This document shows, in pieces, positions 10,702-62,584 of a DNA stretch of 64,000 nt (the first letter of the stretch is position 1; each line of letters begins with the position of its first letter). The DNA lies in contig JAYPEY010000005.1 in NCBI GenBank assembly GCA_038126035.1, forward strand, positions 60,753-124,752, written 5' to 3'. The DNA comes from Verrucomicrobiales bacterium. GTDB lineage: Bacteria > Verrucomicrobiota > Verrucomicrobiia > Limisphaerales > JAYPEY01. The notes below the pieces were generated by a model that saw only the letters and a list, made by a program, of their open reading frames with translations, was not told the DNA's origin and searched no databases. Position numbers and translations under genes: made by a program.

Positions 10702-10838
10702 GGCGGTTCGGACGGACGGGATTGAACCACGGAGACGCCCGCGGCTCAACCGCGCAGCGCCCTCGCTCCCAGAACAGGACGACACAGGCAATTTCCACGC
10801 TGCAAAAAAACGATGATCTGGTAGAAACCGAACGTCGG

Positions 10839-17281: not shown

Positions 17282-17294
17282 GCGGGGAACGCGG

Positions 17295-41838: not shown

Positions 41839-41881
41839 TTTCGGCTTCGCCGGAGAATGGAATATCCCCTCCCGAGAGGGG
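41809..41881 (-). repeat. structured ~75-nt repeat, unit 1 (hairpin CCCCTC-N4-GAGGGG ... GGGGTGGGTTCGC)
   Basis: The reverse strand reads cccctctcgggaggggatattccattctccggcgaagccgaaaatgagaatggaatcggggtgggttcgcccg. It is related to units 2 and 3, with indels. Confidence 0.7.
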
Positions 41882-41910
41882 ACCAACGCAAGAAAGCGCC
41901 ACACGCCAGG

Positions 41911-41986
41911 CCCCCTCCTGGGAGGGGATATTCTTCTCCGCCGACGTAGTCGGTTTGGAGGAGCAGAATTGGGGTGGGTTCGCGCG
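41911..41986 (+). repeat. structured ~75-nt repeat, unit 2
   Basis: ccccctcctgggaggggatattcttctccgccgacgtagtcggtttggaggagcagaattggggtgggttcgcgcg. By manual alignment about 60 of 76 positions are identical to unit 3. It is inverted relative to unit 1, with a 29-nt spacer. Confidence 0.8.
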
Positions 41987-42005
41987 TTGAACATAGGGCT
42001 GTTTC

Positions 42006-45000
42006 CTAAATCGCCGGGACATCCTCCAACTCACCCGCGGCTTCATCCTCGCCCCCGGTCAGGCGCTTGCGCGGATCCAGCGTCGCATAGACCACGCTCA
42101 ACACGGCCGGCACCAGGACCAATGTGAAGATCGTCGACACCAGCAACCCGCCGACCACCACCGCGCCCAGGCCGCGGTACAATTCCGAACCCGCGCCCGG
42201 CAGCAGCACGAGCGGGATCATGCCGCCGACCGAGGTCAGCGAGCCCATCAGGATCGGACGCACGCGTGATTTCACCGACTCGACGATCGCCTCCTGCGGC
42301 GTGTGCGCAATCTCAGGATGATTGAGGAAGTTCAGGGTCTGATGAATGATCAGGATGGCGTTGTTCACCACCACGCCGGCGAGCAGCACAAATCCCAGAA
42401 TACTCAGCATGTCGAGGTTTTGAATCGGCATGTAGCGGTCCGTCACGCTCCACAGGTGCACGGCGAACAGCCCCAGGAATCCGCCCAAGGTCGCCAGGGG
42501 AACGGTCAACATGATCACCACCGGCGAGCTCCAACTCTGGAACAGGACCACCAACACGAGGTAGACCACGAGAAAGGCCAGGAACAGGGAGCTCGAAACC
42601 GTCCCCAGCAGGCCGCCGGCCCCGAGCAACGCGGTCTTGATCTCATTCAACTTGCCCGCCGATCCCGCGAGCCCGACCTCCATGCCCGGCGCGATCACGC
42701 CGCCCTGCTTCAACTGCCCCACCATCGCGTTGACGTCGTCAATCGCCGTTTCCAAGGGCATGCCTGTCGGCGGCGTGAACTGCAGGGTCACCGCGCGCGA
42801 ACGATCGACGTGCCGTATCTCGTTCGGTCCGCGCACCCGGTCCACCTGCGCCAGCGTCCGCAGGTCCACAATGGCGCCCGTGCGTGTGGCGATGGGCGCG
42901 TTGAGGATGCCGTCGACTGGATTGTCGCCCGACGCGTCCTTGCTGATCACCTTGAGGTCGCGCAATTCGCCGTTCTGTTCGTAGTCGCGGAAGAAAAGGA
43001 TGCCGTCGCCGCTCGCCTGCGCCGCCAAGCCGACGTCGCGACGGTTCAGTCCGACCTTGAGCAGCGCGCGATCGTCGGGAACAACGCGCAACTCCGTCGA
43101 AGGCATGGAGAAATTGGCCGGGTCGGGATTCACGCTGTAAGGTCCAAACTTCTCCATCAGTCCGAACATCAGGGCCTGCGTCGCGGCGATGACCTGGTCG
43201 AGATCGCGTCCCTTCAGATCGATCTTGATGGCCGAGCCCGTGTTCCCTCCCACTCGGAAAAGCGGCATCTGAAACGCAAAGGATATGGCGTCGGGCGCGT
43301 TGTGCCCGCCCGCCGATTGGTTCAGCAGCGGGATCAGATCGACGACCTTCTCCTTCTCCGCGGAGATCGCGCCGTGAAACATCCGGCCCTCGAAGCTGAC
43401 GAGAAAGTAATTGTCGATGGGCGGGGGCATGACCTCCATCTGGGAGCCGTCCGGCGTCCGTTGAACAACCGGCGTGCGCCGGTCCTCCTTGGGCTCGTCG
43501 CCGCGGGCGACCGCCTCCACGGCGAACTGATCCGGGGCCGCGTCCCAGGCGGGCTTGATCACCCTCTCAATGCGTTCGCCCATCTGGGTGAGCTGGTCGA
43601 GGTTGTATCCCGGCGGCGGTATGATCATGCCGAAGACAATGTTGCGGTTGCCCTTGGGCAGGTAATCGAGCGGCGGGGTCAGCCACCTGATGCCGACCAC
43701 CGTCCCGAGTGTAAAGACGACGATGACCAGGATCCGCGCCGCCCAACTCCGGTTCACGGCGGCCACCAGGCGCGCGACCAGGGCGGGGAAGGAATTCAGG
43801 ACCCGATGGAGAAAGTCCAAGGGATGAAAGCCGCGTCGCTTGACGTTCTCATGCTCCGGATGCCCCTCGCCCGAATGCAGCAACCTGGCGGCCGCAGCGG
43901 GAATCACGGTCAGGGAAACGACCAGGCTCAAGGCCACCGCCGCCATGATCGCGTAGGCGATGTCCTTGAACAACTGTCCTGCCGTCTCCTGGATCAGCAG
44001 GATCGGGAAGAAGACCGCCATCGTCGTGACGGTCGACGCCAATACGGCCCCAGCGACCTCGCTGGCCCCGTCGTTCGCCGCGCGCCAGGGCGACTTGCCC
44101 ATCTCCAGATGGCGATAGATGTTCTCGATCACCACGATGGCATTGTCCACGACCATGCCGACCGCAAAGGCCATGCCCGCCAGCGAGATGATGTTCACCG
44201 TTCGCCCCAGAGCGACCAGCACAACGATCGCGCCGACGACCGAGATCGGAATCGCCATGGCGATGATGCCGACAGCGCGGTAGGAGCGCAGGAAGAACAA
44301 CAGTGTCAGGGTCGCCAGGACGCCGCCGATCACGATGTTGTTCTGCACGAGCTGGATGGCGTCCTGCACGTAGGTTGTGGCGTCGTAGACCTGGACGAGC
44401 TCGAGCTTTCCATTGAGTCCCAGTTCACGCGCGCGCTCCTCGAGCAGGCCTCCCGGCGCGTTCATCGCGGCGATCTCGGCCTTGATGCGGTCCATCGTGG
44501 CGATGAGGTTGCCGCCGCGCTGGAGCAGGAAATTGAAGAAGGGCATCTGATGTCCGCGCGCCCGGGCCCAGTCGGTCTTCTCCTTGTGCGTCATCACCAC
44601 CTCGGCGACGTCGCGGAGATAGACCGGACCGGAGGCGTCGCGGCGGATGAGCGTGTTCAGCATGGACTCCGCGGTTTCGAATCGACCGACAGACCGCACC
44701 CGGATGTCGCGCTTGCCCTCCACCACCTTGCCGGCGGAATAGTTCTGATTTGAGACGCGGATGACGTCGCTCAACTGCGCCCAGGTCACGCCGCGCTCAG
44801 CCAGGTCCCGGGCATCAACGCGGATCTGCATTTCGGCCTGCCGCCCCCCGCGCACGCCGACCTGCGACACGCCTTCCAGCCGCTCGAAGCGGGGCTTCAT
44901 CCGTCGCTCCATGAAGTCGTAGAGCGTGGTTGTGTCGAAGTCGGGATCCGTGGAGGAAAGTCCGACCCAGGCAATGAAATCGACAGACTCGGGGTCGATG

Positions 45001-45386
45001 TCCTCAACCACGGGTTGCAGCACGGCCTCGGGATAACCTGGAACTTCGTCGAGTTTCTGCAGGACCTCCGCCTTGGCGGCTTCGAGATCCGTGCCGGTGG
45101 CGAATTCCAGACGCACCGTACCCTGCCCCGCCTGGCTGTTGCTGGTCATGGAGACGAGATTCTTCGTCTCGCCCAGGACCTTCTCCTGCTCCTCGACGAT
45201 GTCGCTCTCAATCTCCTCGGCCGATGCGCTCTCCCATCGGGTGGTGACGGAGATCACGACCGAATCCACCTCCGGCTTCATCTGCACCGGCACGCGCGTG
45301 AAGGCCATCAGGCCGCCCAGCAGGCAGAGCCCGACGCCGACGCCCACCGAAATCGGCTGCCGGATGCAGTAATCGACCAGTTTCAT
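42006..45386 (-). CDS. RND efflux transporter permease (AcrB/HAE1-like)
   Basis: 1126 aa with a 12-TM architecture. N-terminus MKLVDYCIRQPISVGVGVGLCLLGGLMAF. Also typical: VDNAIVVIENI. Confidence 0.95.
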   Translation of the reverse strand: MKLVDYCIRQPISVGVGVGLCLLGGLMAFTRVPVQMKPEVDSVVISVTTRWESASAEEIESDIVEEQEKVLGETKNLVSMTSNSQAGQGTVRLEFATGTDLEAAKAEVLQKLDEVPGYPEAVLQPVVEDIDPESVDFIAWVGLSSTDPDFDTTTLYDFMERRMKPRFERLEGVSQVGVRGGRQAEMQIRVDARDLAERGVTWAQLSDVIRVSNQNYSAGKVVEGKRDIRVRSVGRFETAESMLNTLIRRDASGPVYLRDVAEVVMTHKEKTDWARARGHQMPFFNFLLQRGGNLIATMDRIKAEIAAMNAPGGLLEERARELGLNGKLELVQVYDATTYVQDAIQLVQNNIVIGGVLATLTLLFFLRSYRAVGIIAMAIPISVVGAIVVLVALGRTVNIISLAGMAFAVGMVVDNAIVVIENIYRHLEMGKSPWRAANDGASEVAGAVLASTVTTMAVFFPILLIQETAGQLFKDIAYAIMAAVALSLVVSLTVIPAAAARLLHSGEGHPEHENVKRRGFHPLDFLHRVLNSFPALVARLVAAVNRSWAARILVIVVFTLGTVVGIRWLTPPLDYLPKGNRNIVFGMIIPPPGYNLDQLTQMGERIERVIKPAWDAAPDQFAVEAVARGDEPKEDRRTPVVQRTPDGSQMEVMPPPIDNYFLVSFEGRMFHGAISAEKEKVVDLIPLLNQSAGGHNAPDAISFAFQMPLFRVGGNTGSAIKIDLKGRDLDQVIAATQALMFGLMEKFGPYSVNPDPANFSMPSTELRVVPDDRALLKVGLNRRDVGLAAQASGDGILFFRDYEQNGELRDLKVISKDASGDNPVDGILNAPIATRTGAIVDLRTLAQVDRVRGPNEIRHVDRSRAVTLQFTPPTGMPLETAIDDVNAMVGQLKQGGVIAPGMEVGLAGSAGKLNEIKTALLGAGGLLGTVSSSLFLAFLVVYLVLVVLFQSWSSPVVIMLTVPLATLGGFLGLFAVHLWSVTDRYMPIQNLDMLSILGFVLLAGVVVNNAILIIHQTLNFLNHPEIAHTPQEAIVESVKSRVRPILMGSLTSVGGMIPLVLLPGAGSELYRGLGAVVVGGLLVSTIFTLVLVPAVLSVVYATLDPRKRLTGGEDEAAGELEDVPAI

Positions 45387-46615
45387 TGGGCGAAACTCTG
45401 GATCATCAAACCCTGGCCCGGCATCAGGCGCTCGTTGCCTTCGACAATGACCTGGGCGCCTTCAGCGAACGCCTCGGGATCGGCGATGTAGACCCTGCCT
45501 CCGCGCTCGAAGGCGATGTTGACCATGGTCCGCATTCCGGTCGGCATTTCGCCCTCCTTGGCCGGCGGTTGAACGACGTAGACGAAATCGCCGGCCGCGG
45601 AGCGGATGAGCGCGTCGGTCGGAAACACCCAATGCGGGCCGCGCCTGCCGACCGGGACAATCCCGGTCACGGACTCGCCCGGAGCCAGCCTGCGATCACC
45701 GTTCGGCAGTGTCGCCACAACCGTGAACAGCTGGCTGTTGGGATCGACATCGGGGACCAGCTTCACGGAAGCGGGCTTGAGCAGTTCGCCGGTGGCAGAA
45801 CGACGCACGCGAAAACCCTCGCTGTTGCCGCGCAGATCATCGAGGTGACGCGCGGGAACGCGCAGCCAGGCCTCGATCGGATCGACTGTGACCAGACTCG
45901 CGACCACCGCGCCGGCGGACGCCCATTCACCCGGCTCGATGCTGCGGCGCACGATCACGCCGTCAAACGAGGCCTTGATGGTCAGGTCGGCAAGCTGCGC
46001 CTTGAGGAAGGCGATGCGGCTCTCGGCCTCGGCGATGCCGTCGCGCGCCACGTCGCTTTGGGCGTCGGCGACCGCGAGCGCGCGCTCGGCGTCGAGGACG
46101 TCGCTTTCCGACACCGCCTTGCGCGCCAGCAGTCCGCGCTTCATGTCGAAGTCCCGCTTCGCGCGAGCCAGTTCCGCCTGCCGTTGTTTCGCCATGCTGT
46201 GGGCGGATTTCAGGGCGGCCTCGACTTCCGCCAATTGCGCCTTGATCCGACGATCATCCAGTCTGGCGATGATGTCGCCCTCTTTTACGACGCTGCCTTC
46301 GTCCACGAGGACCTCGATGACAGCGCCCGGTTCGCGCGCCGCAATGTCCGCCTGGGAGACTCCGCGCAACTCGCCGGTGACGACGGCTTCGGCCCGGGTC
46401 GTTTCCTGCGCGACAACCTCCACATAGACCGCTGCCGGCGGCATGGCCATGGGACCGCCCCCGGGGCCGCCCGCGCCCGCGACGGGGGCCTCGCGCATGA
46501 CCTTGATGGCGACAAAGGCGGCGGCGACAGCCAACACGGCCAGCGCGAGGATCACGCCGTTGCGCGCTCCCGCCCCGTTGTTGGTTGCATTTGGTTGGAA
46601 TTCGGAATCAGCCAT
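45383..46615 (-). CDS. RND efflux periplasmic adaptor (membrane fusion protein)
   Basis: It has an N-terminal TM helix, a coiled-coil hairpin (AQLAEVEAALKSAHSMAKQRQAELARAKRD) and beta-barrel blocks. It overlaps the permease gene by 4 nt. Confidence 0.9.
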   Translation of the reverse strand: MADSEFQPNATNNGAGARNGVILALAVLAVAAAFVAIKVMREAPVAGAGGPGGGPMAMPPAAVYVEVVAQETTRAEAVVTGELRGVSQADIAAREPGAVIEVLVDEGSVVKEGDIIARLDDRRIKAQLAEVEAALKSAHSMAKQRQAELARAKRDFDMKRGLLARKAVSESDVLDAERALAVADAQSDVARDGIAEAESRIAFLKAQLADLTIKASFDGVIVRRSIEPGEWASAGAVVASLVTVDPIEAWLRVPARHLDDLRGNSEGFRVRRSATGELLKPASVKLVPDVDPNSQLFTVVATLPNGDRRLAPGESVTGIVPVGRRGPHWVFPTDALIRSAAGDFVYVVQPPAKEGEMPTGMRTMVNIAFERGGRVYIADPEAFAEGAQVIVEGNERLMPGQGLMIQSFAQ

Positions 46616-46731
46616 GAATGATCAGGTCCGCTTGTGTTCCACGCGGTTGCCCACATCACAAGGAAAAAAGGACATCCGCGTGACGTCTTCGGGATTGCCT
46701 TGTCCGATCGGTGTTGGCATCACCCCTTGAA

Positions 46732-47286
46732 ATGGCGGAACTCGAATCATCCGGCGAATCCGACGCGACCACCGCGCCGGACTGGCAGTCCCCGGAGCAC
46801 GCCGCCATTTACGAGGAGCATTCCCGGTCGATCTACTACCTCGCCCTGCGCATGCTCAGCGATCCGGCGCAGGCCGAGGACGCGGCGCATGATGTGTTCC
46901 TGAAGGCCTTTCGCAAGCTCGACACCTTTCGCGGCGACGCCGGTTTGCGGACCTGGCCGTATCGGATCGCGATCAATCACTGCAAGAACCTCCTCCAGAC
47001 CTGGCACCGCCGCACCATGGTGAACAACGTGGACGACGCCGTCTGGCAAACCACGCCCTCCTCGTCCGAATCGCCGTTGCGGGCCCTGGAAACCAAGGAG
47101 CTCGGGGAACGCATCCAACGGACACTCGACTGCCTGCCCGAGGAATACAGCCTGCTTCTCCTGCTGGTCGCCGACGAAAAACTCAGCTATGAGGAGGTCG
47201 GTGAATTGACCGAGCAGTCCGCCGACGCCGTCCGCGGCAAGCTCCATCGCGCCCGCAAGGCCTTCCGCGCCGCCTTCGAAAAATGA
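46732..47286 (+). CDS. ECF-type RNA polymerase sigma-70 family factor
   Basis: Region 2: IYYLALRMLSDPAQAEDAAHDVFLKAFRKLDTFRGDAGLRTWPYRIAINHCKN. Region 4: LPEEYSLLLLLVADEKLSYEEVGELTEQSADAVRGKLHRARKAF. An alternative GTG start is at 46711. Confidence 0.9.
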   Translation: MAELESSGESDATTAPDWQSPEHAAIYEEHSRSIYYLALRMLSDPAQAEDAAHDVFLKAFRKLDTFRGDAGLRTWPYRIAINHCKNLLQTWHRRTMVNNVDDAVWQTTPSSSESPLRALETKELGERIQRTLDCLPEEYSLLLLLVADEKLSYEEVGELTEQSADAVRGKLHRARKAFRAAFEK

Positions 47287-47289
47287 GTC

Positions 47290-47532
47290 ATGGAACCTGA
47301 ATCCGAACAATTCAAACAGCGCTCTCGCGAGGAAGAGGACATCGCTTCGCGCCAGGCCGAACAGTCAGGCGCGCAACCGGCGGAATTTGAGACGCCGGAG
47401 GAACTGATCCGCCACGACGCGGCGCGGACCGAGGTCCCCGCCTCGGTGGAAGCCCGGCTCAAGGACTCCCTGGCCAACGAACCCAAGCCCAAACCGGGCA
47501 TCTGGAAACGCCTGTTCGGCGGCGGGGATTGA
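47290..47532 (+). CDS. small acidic protein following the ECF sigma gene (possible partner or anti-sigma; no TM helix)
   Basis: 80 aa, MEPESEQFKQRSREEEDIASRQ...ELIRHDAARTEVPASVEARLKDSL.... The ATG is 3 nt after the sigma stop. Confidence 0.5.
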   Translation: MEPESEQFKQRSREEEDIASRQAEQSGAQPAEFETPEELIRHDAARTEVPASVEARLKDSLANEPKPKPGIWKRLFGGGD

Positions 47533-47593
47533 TCGTTGCCTCCCACTGGCAATTCAGGCAAACGGCTGCTACTTTCCCTTGGTCTCAACCGCC

Positions 47594-49109
47594 ATGGAAA
47601 CCTCCCCCATTGAAGAGATCGAAACGCTCATCCGGGCGCGGTATCCAATCCTGTATGTGCTCTCGGGCGAGGAGGCTCGCGTGACGGAAGCCCTGGTCGA
47701 GATTGGAACGCGTCGCAAGAAATCGATCATCGAATGGAGCTGCAACACCGGCCTGGTCCCCGCCGGCGTGTCCCTGCAGTCCAGACAGTCGCGCGACCCG
47801 CAGACCACCGATCCCGTGGCCGCCTTGAACCGCGCCATTGAGCAGGTGGATCCTGCGATCTTCGTCTTCAAGGATTTCCACCCCTGCCTCGGCCGAAATC
47901 ATCCGGAGACCATCCGCCGTCTGAAGGAGATCGCGGTCCATCTGAAGAACAGCTACAAGACCATCGTGCTGGTGTCGCCTGTGCTCGAGATCCCGACCGA
48001 GTTGGAGAAGGAGATCACGGTCGTGAATTCTCCGCTGCCCGGGCGCGAAGAACTGGCCATCCTGCTGGATGAAATCGTCGAGGAGATCAGCGGCTTCAAC
48101 AACGTGTCCGTGAATCTCGACGCCGATGGGAGGGAACGGCTGCTGCAGGCGGCGTTGGGACTGACGCTGAGCGAGGCGGAAAATGTCTTCGCGCGCATCG
48201 TGGTGAAGCACGAGAGCCTCAGCGGCGATCACGTGCATGAGGTGTTTGCCGAGAAGCAACAGATCATCCGCAAGAGCGGCCTGTTGGAATACTGCTCGCC
48301 GGAGGAGGACTTCTCACAGGTGGGAGGTCTGGCGGGCTTGAAGGACTGGCTGCGGAAGCGCGCGGCGGCCTTCACCGACGAGGCGCGATCCTTCGGGTTG
48401 CCATCGCCCAAGGGCATCCTGCTGCTCGGCGTGCAGGGCTGCGGCAAGAGTCTCTGCGCCAAGGCGGTCGCAAGCCTCTGGCGACTGCCGCTGTTTCGCT
48501 TTCACATGGGGCGAATGTTCGGCAGTTACGTCGGCTCTTCCGAGGAGAACGTGCGCAAGGCGATCGCGGTCGCGGAATCGGTCGCTCCGGCGATCCTCTG
48601 GGTGGACGAGAGACAAGGCCTTCGCCGGGACCCGCGGCTCCGGCGCCAACGACAGCGGCACCACGGCGCGGGTGTTCGGAACCCTGCTCACCTGGATGTC
48701 CGAGAAGACCGCGCCGGTGTTCGTCGTCGCCACCGCCAACGATATTTCCGGTCTGCCGGCCGAACTGCTGCGCAAGGGACGCCTGGACGAGATCTTCTTC
48801 GTCGATCTGCCCGGCGAAGAGGAACGCGCGGACATCGTCCGGATCCACCTGACCAAACGCGGACGCGACCCGGCGGCGTTCGACGCGCCGGGACTGGCAT
48901 CCGTGTGCGAAGACTTCAGCGGGGCGGAGATCGAGGAGGCCGTCGTAAGCGGACTCTACGATGCATTCAGCGAGGGCGACGATTTGACCACGGAACATGT
49001 CGCGCGGGCCATGAGCCAGACCGTGCCGCTCGCGCGAACCATGGCGGAACAGATGAATGAACTCCGCGGCTGGAGCGAAGGTCGCGCGCGCCCCGCGAAC
49101 CAGATCTGA
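47594..49109 (+). pseudogene. Ycf46-like AAA+ ATPase; reading frame broken by a 2-nt gap at 48611 (frameshift or assembly error)
   Basis: ORF 47579..49060 carries the N-terminal domain (METSPIEEIETLIRARYPILYVLSGEEARV...), Walker A (GVQGCGKS) and Walker B up to ILWVDE. The frame then degenerates to R-rich text. Frame +1 (ORF 48672..49109, extendable back to 48612) reads [67 protein letters not shown].... Confidence 0.85.
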
Positions 49110-49131
49110 CCACTCCCCCAACCAGCAAACC

Positions 49132-49905
49132 ATGAGCCGATTTGTCAAACTGGAGTTCGATGACGAAGCGCAGGACCCCGGTCAGCGGGAGGCCCCGTTG
49201 TCGGACGAGGAGCGCTTTCTCAGCGAGGCCGACAAGGCGATGGGCTCCGGCGATTTCGAACGCGCGCTCAAGTTCTTCGCCAAGACGCTGGAAGGCGCGC
49301 CGTCCAGCCATGAAGCCTGGATCGGGCAGGCCCGCGCATTGATCGAGCAGGAAGATCTCGAACGCGCCCGCCAATGGATCGACAAGGCGATCGAAAAGCT
49401 CGGCGAGGAACCGGACCTGTTGGCCGCCAAGGCGATCGTGCTCTCGCGACTCGGGGACCATGAGGCGGCAATGGCCTTCTCCGACGCGGCGATCGAGAAC
49501 GGCCCCGATCGCGCCTACCCGTGGATCGCCCGGGGCGACGCATTGCTGGCGCTCGACGAGAAGCAGGCGGATTACTGCTTCGGCAAGGGTCTGCAATGCG
49601 AGCCTGATCTCTGGTTCTGGCAATGGCTGGTCGCCCGCATCTACGCGTATTACGGGAAGTTCTCCCTGGCGATGAAGCACGCGCAGGAGGCGTTGGCCCT
49701 GGATGCCAGTCATTGCGCGGTCTGGCTGCAGGCGGGCTGTTGCCAACGGGCGCTCGGCCTGGCCGACCTTGCCGCGTCCTCGTTCGAACGGGCTCGGGAA
49801 TTGAACCCCACGTGTGACGAAGCGCGCGCAGCCTTGTCCGAGCTTTCGCGAACGGGCGTCGGCGGCAGGCTGCGCAACTGGTCGCGAAGACTGTTTTCCC
49901 GGTAA
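49132..49905 (+). CDS. soluble TPR repeat protein
   Basis: I prefer ATG 49132 (MSRFVKLEFDDEAQ...). It has five to six TPR-like units (HEAWIGQARALIEQEDLERARQWIDKAI, AYPWIARGDALLAL, CAVWLQAGCCQRALGL). It has a basic amphipathic tail. Confidence 0.85.
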   Translation: MSRFVKLEFDDEAQDPGQREAPLSDEERFLSEADKAMGSGDFERALKFFAKTLEGAPSSHEAWIGQARALIEQEDLERARQWIDKAIEKLGEEPDLLAAKAIVLSRLGDHEAAMAFSDAAIENGPDRAYPWIARGDALLALDEKQADYCFGKGLQCEPDLWFWQWLVARIYAYYGKFSLAMKHAQEALALDASHCAVWLQAGCCQRALGLADLAASSFERARELNPTCDEARAALSELSRTGVGGRLRNWSRRLFSR

Positions 49906-49906
49906 A

Positions 49907-50983
49907 ATGAAAGCGCTCGATCTCGATCTGCTGCTCGGCAGCGCCAACGAACTCAAGGCCTCGGACCTGCACCTCGTGGTCGGCTCGCCTCCGGCCTACC
50001 GGATCAATGGCGAGGTCATCCTGGCCGAGGAGGACTCCATCACCCCCGAGGAGGCCAAGGCCGCAGCGGACGAGTTGCTGAACGATGGACAGAAAAGGAA
50101 ATTCGAGGAGGATTGGGAGTTGTGCGTGTCGCTGTTGCATCCCAAGGCCGGCCGCGTCCGGGTCACGTTCTACCGCCGCAACGGCATTCCGGAGATGAGC
50201 TTCCGCTTCTGCGGCGACTGCATTCCGGAGCGGGCCGAACTGGGGCTGCCCGAAAAGGTCGATGAAATCGCGGCGCGGCCCAATGGGTTGTTTCTCATCA
50301 CCGGCCCGACCGGCTCGGGCAAGACCACCACGCTCAACTACCTGGTCGATCTCATCAACCGCGAGCGTCGCTGCAAGATTGTCACCATCGAGGACCCGAT
50401 CGAATACGTGCACCGGAACCGGCGCGCCATCGTGGTGCAGCAGGAGGTGCTCACGGACACCAAGTCGTTCAACCGCGCGCTCATCCACGCCCTGCGGCAG
50501 GATCCGGATGTCATCGTCATGGGCGAAGTCCGGGACCAGGAGGCGATCGCGACGGCCCTGACCGCAGCGGAGACGGGCCATCTGGTCCTGGCCACGATGC
50601 ATTCGCCCAATGTCGCCCACGCAATGGAGCGCATCATCGGCGTGTTCGAGGGCAGCGCGCAAAGCCAGGTGATCATGCAACTGGCGGCGGGATTGATCGG
50701 CGTGCTTTCGCAGCAACTGCTCCCCTCGGTCGATCGTTCCGGGCGCGCGCTGGCCTACGAGTTGTTGCTGGCCAACAACGCCGTGCGCAATCTGATCCGC
50801 GAATACAACCTGCACCAACTCGAGAACATCATGCAGATGGGCGCGCGGGACGGCATGGCCCTGATGGACGACACGCTTCACCGGCTGTATTCCCGTTGCG
50901 AAATCAGCTTCGACACGGCGATCACCCACGCCCGCGAACCGGACAAGATCAAGTCCCGCATGGGCAAGCAGCAGAACGGGTGA
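49907..50983 (+). CDS. pilT: PilT-family (type IV pilus retraction-type) hexameric ATPase, orphan
   Basis: The ATG is 1 nt after the TPR gene stop. Motifs: Walker A GPTGSGKTTT, Asp box IVTIEDPIEY, Walker B DPDVIVMGEVRD, His box TGHLVLATMHS, and the PilT signature AVRNLIRE. Confidence 0.92.
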   Translation: MKALDLDLLLGSANELKASDLHLVVGSPPAYRINGEVILAEEDSITPEEAKAAADELLNDGQKRKFEEDWELCVSLLHPKAGRVRVTFYRRNGIPEMSFRFCGDCIPERAELGLPEKVDEIAARPNGLFLITGPTGSGKTTTLNYLVDLINRERRCKIVTIEDPIEYVHRNRRAIVVQQEVLTDTKSFNRALIHALRQDPDVIVMGEVRDQEAIATALTAAETGHLVLATMHSPNVAHAMERIIGVFEGSAQSQVIMQLAAGLIGVLSQQLLPSVDRSGRALAYELLLANNAVRNLIREYNLHQLENIMQMGARDGMALMDDTLHRLYSRCEISFDTAITHAREPDKIKSRMGKQQNG

Positions 50984-51227
50984 AGGTCGCCACATGAACG
51001 CAACTGACGAACCAGGCTGATGGCGAGTGTGCCGCATCTTGGCCGCCGTTGCCAACGGGTGTCCCTACCACGACAGTGCAGGTTCCTTTGAACACAGAGA
51101 ACACCGAAAACACGGTTGCCGCCGTCAGCTTGCGTTGAACCTGTCGCGAAAACCGCCGCCTGAATTTCCTGTTCCGCCAACGCAATCCACCGGTTAGCCT
51201 GCAACCAAATCAACCGCCCTTCTGACC

Positions 51228-52472
51228 ATGAATGACGCCGGATCGATCGACTGGGACAAGGTCTGGACGATCGCCAGGTTCACCGTGTGGGCTCTGGTCA
51301 ACGTCGGGGTCCTGATCTGGCTCACGGTCCGCAAGTTCAAGATGGCGCACGGCGACGAGTTCGGGTTCGCCGTCTTCCGCTGGATGCTTTCCATCGACGG
51401 TCTGCTGGCGTTGATCTGGGTGGTCGTGCCCTACACCTTCAGTTCCGGGCCTTTCGGGGTGATCATTGGCGTGGCGGGCATGGCGTTCTGCGGCATCCTG
51501 ATGTCCATGGCGATCACACCGGCGCTGATCGGGCCGTTGGTCGGCGCGTTTACGGGCGAGCTGGACGGCGGCAACGCGGGCTCGAAGAAGGAGCCGCTCT
51601 ACAGCATGGCCCTGGCGCTGCGCAACCGCAGCGAACCCCACAAGGCCATCGAGGCCATCGCCGAACAACTGGAGGAATTCCCCTACGACTTCGAGGGCAT
51701 GATGCTGATGGCCGAGATCGAGGCGCACGATCTCAAGAGCATGCCCGCCGCGCGCGAGACCCTGGAGGAACTGTTGGAGAAAGGCAGTTTCCCCAAGGGC
51801 CGGAAATCCTATATCCTGACGACGCTCGCCGATTGGGAGCTGGAACTGGCCAGGGACGCCGAACGCGCGCGCGCTGCCTTCCTGAGAATCGTCAACATGT
51901 TTCCCGGCTCCGAGATCGCGCGGAAGGCCGAGAAACGTCTGATGCGTCTGCCCTCCAACTCGGCGTTGGCGGACAGGGACGTGACGCACATTCACATGCT
52001 CCCCAGCCAACGCAGCGCCGCCGATCAGGCCGCGATGTCCGCTGCCGGCGCCGCCGATTTCGAGGCTGAAGCCGCAAACCTGACCCGGCGGTTGACGGAA
52101 CAGCCGGGCGATGACGAGGCCCGCGAACGCCTGGCCGAGATCTACGCCCGACACTACCAGCGCGTGGACATGGCCGCCGATCAGCTCGAGCAGTTGATTC
52201 GCGATCCGCGCCAACCGCGCGAGGACACGGTGCGCCGGCTGAACCAACTGGCCCGCTACTACATCAACCATGCGCTGGACGGCGACGCAGCGAAGGTCTG
52301 CCTGCATCGGATCGTGAACATGTTTCCCGGGACCTCATCTGCGGAGCTCGCGCATGTGGAACTGCAGACCATCCCCTCCACCGAGACATTGCGCCGGAAG
52401 CCGGAGGCCATCCCGATGGTCGAGGCGGAGAAGGACCTCGGGCTCAAACGAAGGCCGCCCGGATGGAGCTGA
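51228..52472 (+). CDS. membrane protein: 3-4 N-terminal TM helices plus two TPR/YbgF-like modules
   Basis: TM helices: FTVWALVNVGVLIWLTV, MLSIDGLLALIWVVVPY, VIIGVAGMAFCGILMSMAI. The soluble part has repeated ...IVNMFPGSEIARKAEKRL... and ...IVNMFPGTSSAELAHVEL... modules. Confidence 0.75.
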   Translation: MNDAGSIDWDKVWTIARFTVWALVNVGVLIWLTVRKFKMAHGDEFGFAVFRWMLSIDGLLALIWVVVPYTFSSGPFGVIIGVAGMAFCGILMSMAITPALIGPLVGAFTGELDGGNAGSKKEPLYSMALALRNRSEPHKAIEAIAEQLEEFPYDFEGMMLMAEIEAHDLKSMPAARETLEELLEKGSFPKGRKSYILTTLADWELELARDAERARAAFLRIVNMFPGSEIARKAEKRLMRLPSNSALADRDVTHIHMLPSQRSAADQAAMSAAGAADFEAEAANLTRRLTEQPGDDEARERLAEIYARHYQRVDMAADQLEQLIRDPRQPREDTVRRLNQLARYYINHALDGDAAKVCLHRIVNMFPGTSSAELAHVELQTIPSTETLRRKPEAIPMVEAEKDLGLKRRPPGWS

Positions 52473-53338
52473 TCACGGAACATCTTCAGGGACTGATCCT
52501 GTTCACAGCGGCGTTGTTGACCCTGGGCCTGCTCTCCTTCCGCGCCCTGAAACGCAACACCGACTCCCCCGGCCGCCTCGTCGCGAATTGGGCCATCACC
52601 GGCGCCATCGGCTACGGCTATGTTTTCCACCTGAAACCCATGTCGGGCGCGGGCGGACAATCCGCCCTGTTCGCCGTGATGATGGCGACGGTCGTCGGGG
52701 CGCTCCTCGCGGTCATGTGGGTTCCGGCCATCTTGAACATCATCACCGGCCCGATCATGGAGTGGTTTGCAGGAGGCTGGTTCGCCGACGATTCGAAACC
52801 GTACTACGCCTTTGCCAAGGGACTGCGCAAACGCGGCAAGGCTGAGTCCGCCCTGGAGGAGATCGACCTGCAGTTGGAGAAGTTTCCCGACGACATCGAG
52901 GGGCGGCTGCTCAAGGCGGAGATTCAGGCGGAGGATCTGGAGGAGGTCGACGGCGCTTCGCGATTGTTGGACGAGGTCATCGCTTTCAACGAGGAGGACA
53001 AGAAGGTCGTGCCCGACGCCCTGAAAAAACTGGCCGACTGGTGCCTGCGGATCGACGGCAGTCCCGAACGGGCCGAAGCGGCCCTGCAACGATTGATCGG
53101 GCTCTTTCCGGAGAGCCGGATTGCGGCCGAGGCGGGACGGTTGATCAAACGGATCCCGGATCGCAGACGACTGCTGCAGGATCCAGCGTCGCGCCATGTC
53201 CTGAATCCAAAGCAGCGGGGCTCCCGCATCCGGGTGACCTCCGCCTACAAGGCTTCAAAGGCCGAATCGCGGGAAAAGTCCGGGAAGACCGCTGATGGGG
53301 GGCTCGACAAGGCCAGGGTGAAGACCCGCGAGGACTGA
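52463..53338 (+). CDS. membrane protein paralogous to 51228..52472 (3 TM helices plus one TPR/YbgF-like module)
   Basis: 10-nt overlap with the upstream paralogue. It is collinear with it: KPYYAFAKGLRKRGKAESALEEIDLQLEKFPDDIEGRLLKAEIQAEDL versus EPLYSMALALRNRSEPHKAIEAIAEQLEEFPYDFEGMMLMAEIEAHDL. Also LIGLFPESRIAAEAGRLI. Confidence 0.75.
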   Translation: MELITEHLQGLILFTAALLTLGLLSFRALKRNTDSPGRLVANWAITGAIGYGYVFHLKPMSGAGGQSALFAVMMATVVGALLAVMWVPAILNIITGPIMEWFAGGWFADDSKPYYAFAKGLRKRGKAESALEEIDLQLEKFPDDIEGRLLKAEIQAEDLEEVDGASRLLDEVIAFNEEDKKVVPDALKKLADWCLRIDGSPERAEAALQRLIGLFPESRIAAEAGRLIKRIPDRRRLLQDPASRHVLNPKQRGSRIRVTSAYKASKAESREKSGKTADGGLDKARVKTRED

Positions 53339-53392: not shown

Positions 53393-54211
53393 CTACTTTG
53401 CGGAATCCTTCGGCTTGGCCTTCTTCTTGGCCTTCTCCTTCTCCTGTTGGGCCTTCCGGCGCGCCACGATGCCGTCGAGCTTCTTCTTCTCGGCGGCCAG
53501 GACATCGGGGGTGATGTCAGCGGGGGTGACGTCCGTGCGGTCGAGCTTCTCCTTCCCGGAGAGTTCACGGAGGCGGACGCCGCGGTACCAGACCGGATCG
53601 CCGTGATCCTGCAGGCTGAGATCGCCGCCGCGCGCCTTGAGATCGCCGCCGCGGGCATTGAGCAGATCGACATTGAACTTCCACTTCTTGTCCGCGTAGT
53701 CGAAGTCCACGACCTTCAAACCATTGAGCCAATGTTGCACGACCGGGCCCTGACAGACGATGCGGCCGTGGTTCCATTCGCCGACGGACCGGGTCATGTC
53801 GTGCGAGGGCTGCATGCAGAAGTAGAGCGACGCCGCGCTGGTGCGGGGATTCTTGCCGTCCCGATGCCGGGAGTTGTCGAGGACCTGATACTCATACTGC
53901 CCCGGACGGTAGTAGACGCCGCTGTTGGCTGCCGGGCCCACCTTCCACTGGAAGCGCAGCTCGAAGTTGTCCGGGATCTTCCTGACCGTGTAGACAAGCC
54001 CGCCGCCGCCCTTCGCGCGAAACATGGCGCCGTCGTCAATGATCCAGTTGCCGTTGTTCTTCCAGCCCTTGAAATCCTTCCCGTTGAAGATGAGTTGGAA
54101 ACCCAGTTGCTTCTCGTCGTCGGTGAGCGAATTGGGGTTGTCCGCGGCCGGAGCCGACAAGGCAATGAAGGAGGCAACGGCGGCAATGAGGACGATCAGG
54201 TTCTTTTTCAT
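53393..54211 (-). CDS. DUF1080 (3-keto-disaccharide hydrolase-like) domain protein with a K/E-rich tail
   Basis: I prefer ATG 54211 (MKKNLIVLIAAVASFIALSAPA). Blocks: FNGKDFKGWK, NSGVYYR, EYQVLDN, WNHGRIVCQG, LQDHGDPVWYRGVRL. Confidence 0.88.
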   Translation of the reverse strand: MKKNLIVLIAAVASFIALSAPAADNPNSLTDDEKQLGFQLIFNGKDFKGWKNNGNWIIDDGAMFRAKGGGGLVYTVRKIPDNFELRFQWKVGPAANSGVYYRPGQYEYQVLDNSRHRDGKNPRTSAASLYFCMQPSHDMTRSVGEWNHGRIVCQGPVVQHWLNGLKVVDFDYADKKWKFNVDLLNARGGDLKARGGDLSLQDHGDPVWYRGVRLRELSGKEKLDRTDVTPADITPDVLAAEKKKLDGIVARRKAQQEKEKAKKKAKPKDSAK

Positions 54212-54373
54212 AAGGCGATCAAAGGGAATCGGGTTTTGCGCGCGATGGCAAGGGCGGAAGCCGTGCAGTAAAGCGTCGCCGCGCCTGAAAAGACGTAGCC
54301 GCGCCCGCGAGAACGTGGCCGCGTCCGCGAGTTCCACCTTCCTGCGAAGGCGGCTACGGATCCGCAAGGGCCG

Positions 54374-62400: not shown

Positions 62401-62584
62401 GATACTCCATCTCGATTTCAACGACATCGAGCGTGAAGGTGGGGTAGATCTCCTGGCGGATCCCGCGCGCGACGATGAGTCCGACCGCCACGACGGCGAA
62501 CATGAGCAGGTTCGCGGCGACGTGATTGCGCGCGAACCAGGTCAGAATGCCGGCCGGAGCGGGCGTTTGGGGACGCGCCTTCAT
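59450..62584 (-). CDS. RND efflux transporter permease (second system)
   Basis: 1044 aa with an AcrB-like 12-TM layout: FARNHVAANLLMFAVVAVGLI, VVDDAVVVGEDI. Confidence 0.95.
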   Translation of the reverse strand: MKARPQTPAPAGILTWFARNHVAANLLMFAVVAVGLIVARGIRQEIYPTFTLDVVEIEMEYPGASPEEVEQSIILPIEAELRGLDLIRKVTSIAREGDADIRAELAPGVDRNRGLQEITAAVQRIRLFPAEAEAPEVSLDGGWRRGVLYLSIYGDLDEQGLVKFARQIEAGLLSEPEVSSVEVRGMRRPEIHVVIPRDKLRSLGLRLDDIAEAIDESALDVPAGSIKSPSGDVLLKTSERKSFAREFDEIAVISRTDGSKVLLRDIAEVKDGFEEAQRENYFDGRPSIWLAVYSTETQSPITVANAVEKFIQREQANLPPSVGMKVTYNRTNSYKERIDMLMTNGALGLMLVILALGLFLELRVAFWTAAGIPVSILGSLFLLPAMDASINMISLFGFIVTLGIVVDDAVVVGEDIFHKMSEGMSRLEAAIAGAKAMSVPVVFAVSTNIIAFLPLLFVPGETGRFFYVLPAVVIAVFTVSLIECLLILPAHLAFQSKSKWLRWFDPFQRWQTRLRVKIDDAIDRWYSPIVHGAVRYRWLTVGAFAGVLLLACGYIFSGRINFAFRPSIETPFVQAEIELPSGTPVNRTREVAFEIERAARRALEKTGEKDILVGISTSVAERSSSDCEVSVRLVSQSQRKITGSQFADVWRKEIPDIPDLESVFFDYLIGPGGSAEIDIQISHPDVETLRKAATEVAEAIGKYPGVEDVRKGFGREMPQFNFEITPEGRSLGLTARELGQQIRHAFVGAEALRQPRERDELRVMVQFPEHERRSRGSLEDMLIRVPGGGEIPLRQAARVIPTSAPTRIERLDGSRVHNVTANVIPGQTTGNKVLSAFSRAEMPAIQQKYPALRFRFEGEQREQRESLVNLSWGLLGSLFAVYALMASLLRSYLQALVVLLMIPWSLAGAVMGHVLMGFDLSVFSIFGMIALCGMVVNGAFVLAVTRNDYLREGVPAREAIVRAAQRRFRPILLTAITTFLGLLPMIFETSIQAQFLVPMAISLGMGTVVSAVVVMTFIPALMVIVAELKLEELEERLQAEAQPA

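Follow-up and report, generated by a model that had tools for sequence, protein, structure and literature searches.

A short variant of an ECF sigma factor-associated module with Ycf46-like AAA+ and PilT-family ATPases in Verrucomicrobiota

Introduction

Several described systems share parts with the locus analyzed here. Among them are PilT, the retraction ATPase of type IV pili (T4P), whose genes often lie apart from the other pil genes; the E. coli sigmaE–RseA and alphaproteobacterial EcfG–NepR switches; Cdc48/p97; and LapB (YciM), a membrane-anchored cytoplasmic TPR adaptor of FtsH. Another example is Ycf46 (slr0374 / Synpcc7942_0417) of cyanobacteria and plastids, and expression of the cyanobacterial ycf46 operon has been reported to be induced by severe stress (bioRxiv 10.1101/2025.07.21.665879). 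The locus lies in a 64-kb window (the whole stretch of DNA that was analyzed) and encodes an ECF sigma factor, a small protein (p80), a Ycf46-like AAA+ ATPase, a soluble TPR protein, a PilT-family ATPase and two membrane/TPR proteins, M414 and M291 (Table 1). The best explanation is that the window holds a reduced, short variant of a larger Verrucomicrobiota module controlled by the ECF sigma factor. A preliminary description of this DNA could match the cluster to no described system, and no paper describing it was found in the literature search.

Organization of the Cluster and Its Interrupted AAA+ Gene

The seven genes are carried on one strand between 46711 and 53338, with gaps of 3, 61, 22, 1, and 244 nt followed by a 10-nt overlap. 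The ORFs, spacings, flanks and protein motifs listed in the preliminary description, including the AVRNLIRE motif, were all recovered as given, with one exception: the AAA+ gene does not form a single uninterrupted ORF. Its frame shifts just after ILWVDE, where the window reads GAG A GAC and relatives read GAG ATC GAC, with 2 nt missing at about 48611; a tblastn alignment with an intact orthologue breaks at 48610/48612, the uncorrected ORF continues out of frame to 49060, and the 22-nt gap to the TPR gene is valid only if the frameshift is bridged. The deletion is common to two Logan assemblies 99.97–99.99% identical to the window, and the AAA+ gene is intact in two JGI metagenome contigs that are 99.5% identical to it. 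The deletion is recent, and therefore the module is probably impaired in this strain; since the neighboring genes are retained, the AAA+ protein would be dispensable at least under some conditions.

Table 1. Features of the cluster and its flanks (window coordinates).
Feature	Position	Strand	Remarks
OEP–RND–MFP operon	40360-46615	-	Left flank, divergent
Promoter-like motif CGTGAC-N17-GTCCGA	46679..46707	+	Putative autoregulated operon promoter
ECF (group 4) sigma, RpoE-like	46711..47286	+	Pfam Sigma70_r2, Sigma70_r4_2; TIGR02937
p80 (80 aa), small soluble protein	47290..47532	+	Conserved directly after sigma gene
AAA+ ATPase, Ycf46-like architecture	47594..49109	+	Pfam AAA 5e-29; interrupted by 2-nt deletion
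Frameshift site in AAA+ gene	48609..48613	+	Window GACGAGAGACAAG vs intact allele GACGAGATCGACAAG (VDEIDK)
TPR protein, 257 aa, soluble	49132..49905	+	Multiple TPR Pfam matches
PilT/PilU-family hexameric ATPase	49907..50983	+	TIGR01420; no pilus machinery nearby
M414, 414 aa	51228..52472	+	Three N-terminal TM helices, then two TPR modules
M291, 291 aa	52463..53338	+	TM helices, one TPR module, basic tail; overlaps M414 end by 10 nt
DUF1080 (3-keto-disaccharide hydrolase) gene	53393-54367		Right flank, convergent

The AAA+ protein consists of a degenerate AAA-like N-half and a classic-clade AAA C-half that would be active by its sequence features (Walker A GVQGCGKS, Walker B ILWVDE, and pore loop SYVGSSE). 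For an orthologue with 81% identity, the AlphaFold model can be aligned with D1–D2 of p97/Cdc48 across about 550 columns (E = 7e-19); the predicted fold has two tiers like that of Cdc48, and its pore loop is intact.

Conservation and the Long Variant

With the AAA+ gene as anchor, synteny was surveyed across 80 Verrucomicrobiota genomes at species level; AAA+ orthologues are at least 67–72% identical across these 80 fetched genomes. In 62 of 64 genomes, the AAA+ gene is preceded by a sigma gene whose product is 60–80% identical to that of the window, and in 61 of 64 by p80; TPR–PilT follows downstream in 40 of 49, with PilT proteins 66–93% identical to that of the window; the remaining 9 of 49 have no PilT within 7 kb of the AAA+ gene. 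The order sigma, p80, AAA+, TPR, PilT is kept across many species with differing outer flanks, and the segment from AAA+ to TPR–PilT persists despite insertions and although the accessory block has been lost repeatedly. This conservation in other genomes shows that the arrangement did not arise by chance alone, and, judged by gene order, the cluster is a real module, undescribed in the literature found and kept in many Verrucomicrobia species. The neighborhood comparison that had been set beforehand as the means of refutation, spanning dozens of species-level genomes, thus leaves the proposal standing. The fetched examples of the sigma–AAA–TPR–PilT order are all from Verrucomicrobiota or from MAGs of unknown or doubtful label, and part of the synteny could therefore reflect shared ancestry.

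The seven genes had been proposed as the module itself; their synteny holds, but in most genomes a long variant additionally carries a radical-SAM enzyme, DUF1257 (Ycf35), DUF2997 and an S26-like membrane protein. In a relative with 56% AAA+ identity, the order is radical SAM, small ORF, AAA, DUF1257-like, DUF2997, membrane protein, TPR, PilT. The window variant has neither DUF1257 nor DUF2997, and this speaks against a very improbable reading in which the AAA+/DUF1257/DUF2997 triad forms the center of an anti-phage or conflict system. Such a role is suggested by distant AAA+ relatives that accompany DUF1257 and DUF2997 among small ORFs of phage-like character (STIV_B116-like, DUF3150) or adjoin a PD-(D/E)XK nuclease and a kinase–AAA fusion, and by the resemblance of the AAA domain to IetA/IteA. 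PADLOC, however, gave no system-level match to a defense system, its sole match being the generic AAA domain to IetA, and the module looks core-genome-like, with the above identity, a fixed place by the ECF sigma gene, housekeeping-type neighbors and no mobile-element signature. Genes for HSP20, Lon, and a LolA-like protein are found directly upstream of the cluster in about 10–13 genomes, and one M homologue sits after dnaK–groES–groEL.

The ECF Sigma Factor, Its Promoter-Like Motif, and p80

The sigma factor matches Sigma70_r2 (6e-15), Sigma70_r4_2 (1e-9), and TIGR02937 (91 bits; cut-off 42.9), and its best NCBIfam matches are RpoE-like, yet under their cut-offs. Candidate start codons are GTG at 46711 and TTG at 46714. 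The promoter-like motif in front of it occurs just once as an exact match in the 64-kb window, scoring 28 bits with the PWM, and its last base stands 3 nt 5′ of the sigma start codon. Upstream of sigma genes the motif takes the extended form GCGTGAC-N17-GTCYRA; with its strict 17-nt spacer it is present in 61 of 72 related loci, and an in-frame start codon follows exactly 6 nt past the −10 element in 44 of 61 loci. The motif ends only a few bases before the start codon and therefore the transcript looks leaderless; the sigma mRNA is probably leaderless or near-leaderless.

Exact copies of CGTGAC-N17-GTCYRA number 96 in 2.26 Mb of fetched loci, each directly upstream of a cluster gene. In the first locus set (1.49 Mb), the 77 copies precede sigma (62), DUF1257 (9), M (5), and AAA (1) genes, and in a separate set (0.77 Mb) the 19 copies precede sigma (11), M (7), and TPR (1) genes, with none elsewhere in either set. 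At 16 bits or more, the PWM flags 34 DUF1257 genes; in other genomes the same motif is found before some M genes and before the second gene block, which begins with DUF1257, and it stands 5′ of the block ending in TPR–PilT in at least 34 genomes. Control by the ECF sigma factor, as put forward in the preliminary description, is supported by this motif, with its strict spacing and its restriction to positions before cluster genes, and co-regulation of the cluster is, at the sequence level, well supported.

Of 64 genomes, 61 have the p80 gene directly 3′ of the sigma gene; the gap is between −10 and +20 nt in 77 of 87 pairs (median 8 nt). The protein shows a conserved core (EF..EELLRHDA..T.VP..V..RL) and an aromatic-basic C-terminal tail (IWKRLFGGGD) in the alignment; searches of Pfam, NCBIfam, and PADLOC gave no known domain, and those of Pfam and NCBIfam no match to a known anti-sigma domain. 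From its gene position, p80 is a candidate cognate anti-sigma factor. The tail motif is present in 44 of 77 p80 proteins, 29 of 56 TPR proteins, and 10 of 45 S26-like proteins but absent from all other families scored; among 10,210 ORFs scanned, 83 of 84 matches fall in these three families. Alternatively, the tail could be a membrane-binding amphipathic end unrelated to the AAA+ protein.

The TPR Protein and PilT

The PilT protein exceeds the TIGR01420 cut-off (385 against 319 bits) and aligns along its entire length with Aquifex PilT (2ewv; 283 bits). The preliminary description had noted the lack of T4P parts in the window, and indeed no pilin, PilB, PilC, PilM–Q, or secretin gene, nor any T2SS part, was found there; these pilus and secretin genes are equally missing from the Pfam-annotated related loci. 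The TPR protein has a conserved N-terminus (MSRFVKLEF), a C-terminal tail (NWSRRLFSR) like that of p80, and neither signal peptide nor lipobox. Its orthologue family is tight (511 matches of 255–292 aa, mostly 257–260), and its gene is immediately 5′ of PilT in 61 of 69 pairs with a median overlap of 4 nt. Gene order thus presents the TPR protein as a dedicated partner of PilT, the two genes being spaced as translationally coupled ones are.

These data bear on the explanation that independent functions lie side by side, that is, a sigma/anti-sigma pair with a stress AAA+ chaperone beside an ordinary T4P retraction PilT and a PilF/PilW-like TPR protein, with pilus genes elsewhere and the M proteins as unrelated envelope proteins. 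It is consistent with the retention of all PilT motifs and the passing of the PilT/PilU model, with the automated source names PilF or TadD of some TPR orthologues, with the appearance of PilF and PilW among the structural matches of M414 (see below), with the genomes in which PilT is distant from the AAA+ gene or M genes are elsewhere, and with the usual dispersal of pilT genes. It is nevertheless unlikely, given the AAA+ to TPR–PilT order kept in 40 of 49 species, the ECF motif before the block ending in TPR–PilT, the absence of pilus genes from the window and related loci, and a TPR protein that, unlike the outer-membrane lipoproteins PilF and PilW, has no export signal and shares its tail with p80.

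The Membrane/TPR Proteins M414 and M291

That the two membrane proteins are paralogous, as first proposed, was borne out by BLASTP (E = 8e-27, 30% identity), the TPR module occurring twice in M414. They had been described as proteins of 3–4 TM helices with YbgF/TPR modules: the TPR part holds, M414 has three TM helices, and its profile matches (TPR_14, TPR_6, YbgF) are weak. The YbgF-like label suggested a periplasmic TPR domain; by the positive-inside rule, however, the C-terminal TPR domains of both proteins are probably cytoplasmic, loop 1 of M414 being rich in K/R. Foldseek searches with the AlphaFold model of M414 (pLDDT 76) gave only generic TPR folds, LapB, PilF, and PilW among them. 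A PilC/GspF-type platform, checked as a possible identity of the pair, was rejected: Pfam, NCBIfam, and Foldseek gave only TPR, and no PilC-like features were seen.

Loci with M414 relatives include 23 with core cluster genes, 18 standalone, and 39 too short to judge; standalone genes thus make up 18 of 41 judgeable loci, and only one of the 18 has the motif. In some genomes M relatives adjoin the PilT or sigma gene, and the M–M pair with an overlap of 4–10 nt is kept in loci L001–L004, L095–L097, L099, and L100. In the window, the PWM scan found no recognizable ECF motif in front of M414, in the 244-nt gap. By this distribution, M414 and M291 are facultative members of the module.

Proposed Mechanism

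The best reading, which we hold to have about an even chance of being correct, is an ECF-driven stress module in which a Cdc48-like unfoldase and a TPR-coupled PilT act at the inner membrane. The stress link is drawn because of the HSP20, Lon, and LolA-like neighbors, the dnaK–groES–groEL genes by an M homologue, and the stress-induced cyanobacterial ycf46 operon. In the mechanism that we infer, p80 would be a small soluble anti-sigma factor of NepR size holding the sigma factor until a stress signal, and the released sigma would transcribe its own operon. The AAA+ hexamer would be a protein unfoldase engaging proteins with the aromatic-basic tail WW[RK][RQ]LF (p80 and the TPR protein), perhaps both stripping p80 off sigma in a positive feedback and recruiting the TPR–PilT complex. 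PilT would not be a pilus motor, but might exert ATP-driven force through its TPR adaptor on the cytoplasmic side of the inner membrane, with M414 and M291, as membrane-anchored cytoplasmic TPR proteins, serving as docking sites where present. The output would be stress-induced remodeling or extraction of membrane or envelope proteins, and it is in this sense that we infer an envelope-associated module. Several observations weigh against this reading: p80 resembles no known anti-sigma domain, PilT is distant from the AAA+ gene in some genomes, many M genes stand alone, M414 of the window has no recognizable ECF motif, and the AAA+ gene is inactivated in this strain; pilus genes could also be located elsewhere in the genome, and the synteny may in part reflect ancestry.

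Export of small proteins is a quite improbable alternative, less so than the anti-phage one. Here, the AAA+ unfoldase would prepare p80 (and, in the long variant, a 56–66-aa protein and DUF2997) and a secretion-type PilT would drive them across via polytopic partners, much as an AAA+ protein accompanies FtsK/SpoIIIE ATPases in type VII secretion. The many small proteins with a common C-terminal motif, a possible targeting signal, point to it, as do the PilT relatives GspE, DotB, and VirB11, which drive secretion systems, and a weak match of the TPR protein to the N-terminal TPR domain of EccA1 (E = 0.003). A full-length AAA+ homologue (cluster representative P0298, 45% identical to the query) is encoded in a Firmicute locus, right behind a pair of WXG100 genes and the gene of an FtsK/SpoIIIE ATPase of 935 aa, but this T7SS-like context is one distant locus. 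Moreover, the analysis turned up neither a channel-forming nor an outer-membrane component, the facultative M proteins span the membrane with only three helices, the p80 gene position fits an anti-sigma factor and not a cargo, and the short variant keeps AAA+, TPR, and PilT without most small proteins.

Comparison with Known Systems

The proposed stress module resembles several known systems in parts. Its PilT is like the T4P retraction ATPase (TIGR01420) in its full-length match above the curated cut-off, with solved PilT structures as best match, and in its Walker A/B, Asp and His boxes and AIRNLIRE-type motif; it differs in that its gene is translationally coupled to that of a cytoplasmic TPR protein (257 aa), shares an ECF-controlled operon with the gene of an AAA+ unfoldase, and has no PilB, PilC, pilin, PilM–Q, or secretin gene alongside in the window or the Pfam-annotated related loci. 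With E. coli sigmaE–RseA and alphaproteobacterial EcfG–NepR, the cluster shares a two-domain ECF sigma, a small co-translated partner and an autoregulatory promoter, whose −10 element (GTCTAA) presumably resembles the sigmaE type while the −35 GCGTGAC differs from GGAAC. It departs from them in that p80 has no TM helix or known anti-sigma domain and the sigma start looks leaderless, and from RpoE-type switches in that the regulon consists of two ATPases and not of periplasmic chaperones or proteases. As in LapB–FtsH, M414 and M291 are N-terminally membrane-anchored, with predicted cytoplasmic TPRs and genes near AAA-type ATPases; in contrast, their similarity to LapB is generic TPR only (E of about 1e-3, TM-score of about 0.25), they differ in having three TM helices and in lacking a rubredoxin domain, and the cluster encodes no protease domain, so the likeness reads as analogy, not homology. 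Ycf46, likened by architecture, has the same non-catalytic N-terminal domain and one C-terminal classic AAA domain. Its operon and the cluster both place the AAA+ protein under a stress regulator, although this is an ECF sigma here and RpaB/(p)ppGpp in cyanobacteria, for which the papers found report no TPR–PilT link; in the long variant and distant relatives the AAA+ gene goes with DUF1257 (Ycf35) and DUF2997, cyanobacterial/plastid "ycf-type" families. Finally, compared with Cdc48/p97, the AAA+ protein of about 505 aa has no Cdc48-type N domain and its N-half has lost the nucleotide-binding motifs, whereas its C-half is nearest to Cdc48 D2 by sequence and it shares the YVG pore loop and, in prediction, the two-tier fold.

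Gene content and surroundings of the cluster

The cluster is formed by seven genes read in the same direction, and the coordinates of these genes, of their flanks and of the sites and related loci used for comparison are collected in the first table. When the window was re-read, the spacings and sequence motifs quoted in the preliminary description were all found to be correct; its account was right otherwise, but a frameshift in the AAA+ gene had been overlooked. None of the accessory genes of the long variant of the module described below occurs anywhere in the window's 64 kb. In the cluster region, no Rfam element was matched at E <= 1, and terminator-like and sigma-70-like sites were not above shuffled expectation. 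Elsewhere in the window, two separate RND efflux sets (OEP-RND-MFP to the left and AcrB-HlyD-like to the right) and two PSD/PSCyt (DUF1592/1588/1585) genes, one of them followed by a DUF1552 gene, are typical for PVC genomes. A BNR_4-domain gene is broken by an in-frame TGA (...EYDGSTHN*TAGLGQF...) lying between two ORFs, with the Pfam domain running on past the stop. Together with the AAA+ frameshift, this makes two lesions in the window that inactivate a gene.

Coordinates of the cluster genes, flanking genes, putative sites and comparison loci (window positions, except where a fetched related locus, L, is named)
Feature	Position	Remarks
PSD/PSCyt genes	10722-14641; 17040-19829	
ORFs on either side of the BNR_4 stop	25363-26016; 22168-25311	
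In-frame TGA in BNR_4 gene	25363-25365	minus strand
OEP-RND-MFP efflux operon	40360-46615	left flank, divergent
Promoter-like motif, exact copy	46679-46707	3 nt ahead of GTG 46711
Candidate sigma starts	46707-46716	GTG at +3, TTG at +6
ECF sigma	46711-47286	
p80	47290-47532	80 aa
C-terminal tail of p80	47508-47532	WW[RK][RQ]LF; orthologues in L003-L089
AAA+ ATPase	47594-49109	2 nt absent at about 48611
TPR protein	49132-49905	257 aa
Near-match to the motif	49813-49841	TGTGAC-N17-GTCCGA, within TPR gene
C-terminal tail of TPR protein	49879-49905	WW[RK][RQ]LF; orthologues in L003-L089
PilT-family ATPase	49907-50983	
M414	51228-52472	membrane/TPR protein
M291	52463-53338	M414 paralogue
DUF1080 gene		right flank, convergent
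AcrB-HlyD-like RND set	59450-63783	
Long module, examples	L008 6974-11175; L010-L089; L176	
HSP20/Lon/LolA-like genes upstream, examples	L003 1622-5293; L007 1728-5348; L139 6152-9900	and others
127-aa putative lipoprotein	L003 12199-12582	minus; also most of L095-L174
Distant AAA+ with DUF1257 and DUF2997	L179 6280-10501; L178 1276-8295	
WXG100 genes, FtsK/SpoIIIE ATPase and AAA+ relative	L175 4069-9515	spore-forming Firmicute

Gene order across genomes

With the repaired AAA+ protein as anchor, one genome was scanned for each species; 490 relatives were recovered, and every component was scored by tblastn in the best 80 of these loci (67-72% identical), nearly all of the taxonomically labelled ones being Verrucomicrobiota MAGs. 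Conservation of the gene neighbourhood in related genomes, proposed earlier as a check on the module, was found: the sigma gene lies upstream of the AAA+ gene in 62 of the 64 loci with enough flank, p80 comes right after it in 61/64 genomes, and the TPR-PilT pair stands downstream of AAA+ in 40 of 49 loci, with outer flanks that vary from genome to genome. Most genomes carry a longer version, in the order sigma, p80, radical SAM (PflA/QueE-like), a small ORF of about 56 aa, AAA+, DUF1257 (Ycf35), DUF2997, an S26-like membrane protein (about 296 aa, four TM helices), TPR and PilT. Both flanks are covered in 43 loci, 27 of them long forms, 7 short forms of the window type and 9 without PilT nearby. 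The AAA+ gene separates the radical-SAM block from the DUF1257 block; no locus carrying PilT has one block without the other, and the short form is scattered over several separate clades of the AAA+ tree. The long order is kept, without the sigma gene, even in a relative at only 56% AAA+ identity. What the window carries is a reduced version of the module, and in this strain it is damaged. As a side observation, the genes immediately upstream of the cluster in about 10-13 genomes are HSP20, Lon and a LolA-like (TP_0789-like) gene.

The sigma factor, its putative promoter and p80

The sigma factor consists of sigma-2 and sigma-4 domains only (Sigma70_r2 at 6e-15, Sigma70_r4_2 at 1e-9), scores 91.2 bits against TIGR02937 (ECF superfamily, cut-off 42.9) and belongs to ECF group 4. 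The main text of the ECF reclassification paper does not mention Verrucomicrobia, AAA or PilT (PMC7826278). A promoter-like motif, CGTGAC-N17-GTC[TC][AG]A (consensus GCGTGACnT...TGTCTAATC), precedes the sigma gene in 61/72 loci, with a spacer of 17 nt without exception, and would provide the autoregulatory promoter ahead of its own gene that is characteristic of ECF factors. Both strands of the loci anchored on the AAA+ protein and of those anchored on the membrane proteins M414 and M291 were scanned (second table), and within these 2.26 Mb of fetched loci no copy was found outside the upstream regions of cluster genes; a PWM at >= 16 bits marked 34 DUF1257 genes. The window has a single exact copy. 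In 44 of the 61 loci the distance from the -10 element to an in-frame start codon is exactly 6 nt, which suggests that the sigma mRNA is leaderless. The sigma-p80 spacing is as tight as that of TPR and PilT. Taken at the level of sequence, the comparison argues strongly for a single transcription unit or regulon driven by the ECF factor from this putative promoter, and the motif is specific enough for regulon prediction in any Verrucomicrobial genome. Another possible ECF promoter, lying within the TPR gene and 66 nt ahead of PilT, was also considered; the site has one mismatch and shares CCTTGTCCGA with the sigma promoter, but it is probably due to chance, since a window of this size should contain about 1.5 sites of this kind at random and the closest relatives do not conserve it.

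Exact copies of the promoter-like motif, by the gene that they precede
Locus set	Sequence	Exact copies	Sigma	DUF1257	M	AAA+	TPR	Elsewhere
AAA+-anchored	1.49 Mb	77	62	9	5	1	0	0
M-anchored	0.77 Mb	19	11	0	7	0	1	0

No family in Pfam, NCBIfam or PADLOC was matched by p80, and no TM helix was found in it. The core of the protein is conserved, and its C-terminal WW[RK]RLFG is resembled by the C-terminus of the TPR protein (RGWWR[RQ]LF). This aromatic-basic tail is present in 44/77 p80, 29/56 TPR and 10/45 S26-like proteins and in none of the other families scored; among 10,210 ORFs, 83 of the 84 matches fall in the p80, TPR and S26-like families.

The AAA+ ATPase

The AAA+ frame breaks past ILWVDE. 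The frameshift is a strain-level inactivating allele and not a property of the module, because the gene is intact in two JGI contigs 99.5% identical to the window, which read GAG ATC GAC at this point, while two other assemblies (99.97-99.99% identical) carry the same 2-nt deletion. A one-off assembly error is rejected on the same grounds; the three concordant assemblies possibly come from one sample series and may share a technical cause. The broken and intact alleles, at 99.5% identity, offer a ready-made natural comparison, with the broken one in samples SRR26337523-25 and the intact one in JGI 3300064468 and 3300064344.

The Pfam AAA match spans residues 275-405 only, and solved structures are matched at the sequence level by the C-terminal half only. 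In the AlphaFold model of an 81%-identical orthologue, the N-terminal half is an alpha/beta domain with a helical lid and the C-terminal half a classic AAA module; Foldseek aligned about 550 columns of this model with the D1-D2 tiers of p97/Cdc48 (E = 7e-19). A pore-loop motif, SYVGSSE, is also present. From the model, we read the protein as a probable two-tier unfoldase with a degenerate first tier. Its layout, an N-terminal non-ATPase domain followed by one C-terminal classic AAA module in about 500 aa, is of the Ycf46 type and common to at least 150 full-length representatives (39-56% identity), within a large family of 5,427 representatives at E <= 1e-30. No Ycf46-specific model was among the matches in the libraries used, the source names of the relatives carry only the COG-level label 'SpoVK/Ycf46/Vps4 family', and cluster look-ups gave no informative names for the distant ones.

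PilT and its TPR partner

The PilT protein belongs to the PilT/PilU family (TIGR01420, 384.9 bits against a cut-off of 319.1, residues 6-346 of 358) and is matched full-length by solved PilT structures, among them Aquifex PilT 2ewv at 283 bits. GPTGSGKTTT, DPDVIVMGEVRD, TGHLVLATMHS and AVRNLIRE are readable in its translation, and the protein has a Walker A, an Asp box/Walker B, a His box and an AIRNLIRE-type motif. It could accordingly be an ordinary pilus retraction motor whose neighbourhood is historical, and this is the main rival explanation, which is considered unlikely. PilB, a PilC platform, pilins and PilM-Q were detected neither in the 64-kb window, as had been said from the sequence at first for all but PilB, nor in the Pfam-annotated related loci, and T2SS genes are likewise missing from the window. 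The median TPR-PilT gene pair has a 4-nt overlap, and 61/69 pairs lie within -10 to +20 nt.

The membrane proteins M414 and M291

M414 and M291 are 30% identical (E = 8e-27), and family searches with both gave only weak TPR-type matches at E <= 0.01. The AlphaFold model of M414 has three TM helices followed by TPR modules, and the first loop of the M proteins is K/R-rich, so that under the positive-inside rule the TPR modules are predicted to face the cytoplasm. As the Foldseek search with M414 returned generic TPR folds only (including PilF, BamD and LapB), no specific homologue can be named. Membership of these paralogues in a T4P/T2SS platform family, which would have tied the module to a known system, was rejected: profile and Foldseek searches gave TPR only, and three TM helices plus TPR modules do not make a PilC/GspF (T2SSF) platform. 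A small-protein export system, for which p80 and the small ORF of the long form might be invoked, is less likely than the retraction motor and quite doubtful.

With aligned M414 relatives as the query, metagenome contigs were scanned and 80 loci retained, of which 23 have core cluster genes, 18 are stand-alone and 39 are too short to tell; the ECF motif was found in 1/18 of the stand-alone copies. Even in fairly close relatives (59-72% M identity), the M-M pair lies away from PilT. The M proteins are facultative members. For the undescribed, ECF-controlled and ATP-driven module put forward in the preliminary description, there is support where the sigma-through-PilT core is concerned, and only loose support for including the two membrane proteins. 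A 244-nt gap precedes M414 in the window; an ECF promoter in it was rejected, with no PWM match above 12 bits, and the proximal 90 nt or so alone are conserved with the nearest relatives. The M genes are nearly always followed by a convergent gene for a domain-less putative lipoprotein of 127 aa, which is missing from the window, where the paralogue M291 and the DUF1080 gene are in its place. Stand-alone M loci often have a Lon/LolA-like pair 8-9 kb away on the other strand, and dnaK-groES-groEL precedes one distant M homologue.

Distant relatives and defence-system searches

Distant full-length AAA+ relatives are again found with DUF1257 and DUF2997. In one such locus small ORFs (STIV_B116-like, DUF3150) form a phage-like run, and at another distant AAA+ locus the neighbours are a PD-(D/E)XK nuclease, a kinase-AAA fusion and a further AAA+ gene. 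In the spore-forming Firmicute, two WXG100 genes and a 935-aa FtsK/SpoIIIE ATPase precede a full-length AAA+ relative (cluster representative 45% identical to the query, P0298), and this context is type VII secretion-like. PADLOC gave no system-level match for the cluster: IetA was matched by the generic AAA domain only, the TPR protein and PilT had weak partial matches (PDC-M16B, mad8, mad3), and nothing was returned for M414, M291, p80, radical SAM, DUF1257, DUF2997 or the S26-like protein. A conflict system is highly improbable, far more so than a retraction motor. The cyanobacterial ycf46 operon is a severe-stress, stringent-response-dependent unit (bioRxiv 10.1101/2025.07.21.665879), and DUF2997 and ycf35 have been tied to the ferredoxin fed7 in cyanobacteria. 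The Verrucomicrobial cluster is described in none of the papers returned by literature searches with Ycf46, DUF1257, DUF2997, PilT and Verrucomicrobia.

Proposed function and comparison with known systems

The leading interpretation, put forward tentatively, is an unrecognised ECF-switched inner-membrane machine of Verrucomicrobiota, in which a pilus-free PilT motor, a TPR adaptor and a Ycf46-type AAA+ unfoldase would be combined, the full version adding Ycf35/DUF1257, DUF2997 and a radical-SAM enzyme. To the gene order, the promoter-like motif, the coupled pairs, the shared C-terminal tail and the Cdc48-like AAA+ fold, all shown by comparison, a possible mechanism can be added. In such a mechanism, p80 would be a small soluble anti-sigma factor, and the AAA+ hexamer would act on tail-bearing proteins, by which the sigma factor would be freed and TPR-PilT recruited. 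PilT would then work through its TPR adaptor on the cytoplasmic side of the inner membrane, where the M proteins may serve as optional docks, and the output would be the remodelling, in response to stress, of membrane or envelope proteins.

The system matches no described kind, and its function is putative. Almost all that is understood of PilT-type ATPases concerns their role as motors of pilus retraction. A conserved PilT that is translated together with a cytoplasmic TPR protein and is controlled, along with an AAA+ unfoldase, by a dedicated ECF sigma factor would, if so, represent a novel role for such a motor. For decades, Ycf46, Ycf35 (DUF1257) and DUF2997 have been a puzzle in the biology of cyanobacteria and plastids. 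Here they appear as one set, co-regulated and co-lost, with identifiable partners, from which testable hypotheses can be drawn, and, if the proposed machine is real, the cluster would be the first genetic handle on the role of the enigmatic cyanobacterial and plastid Ycf46 and Ycf35.
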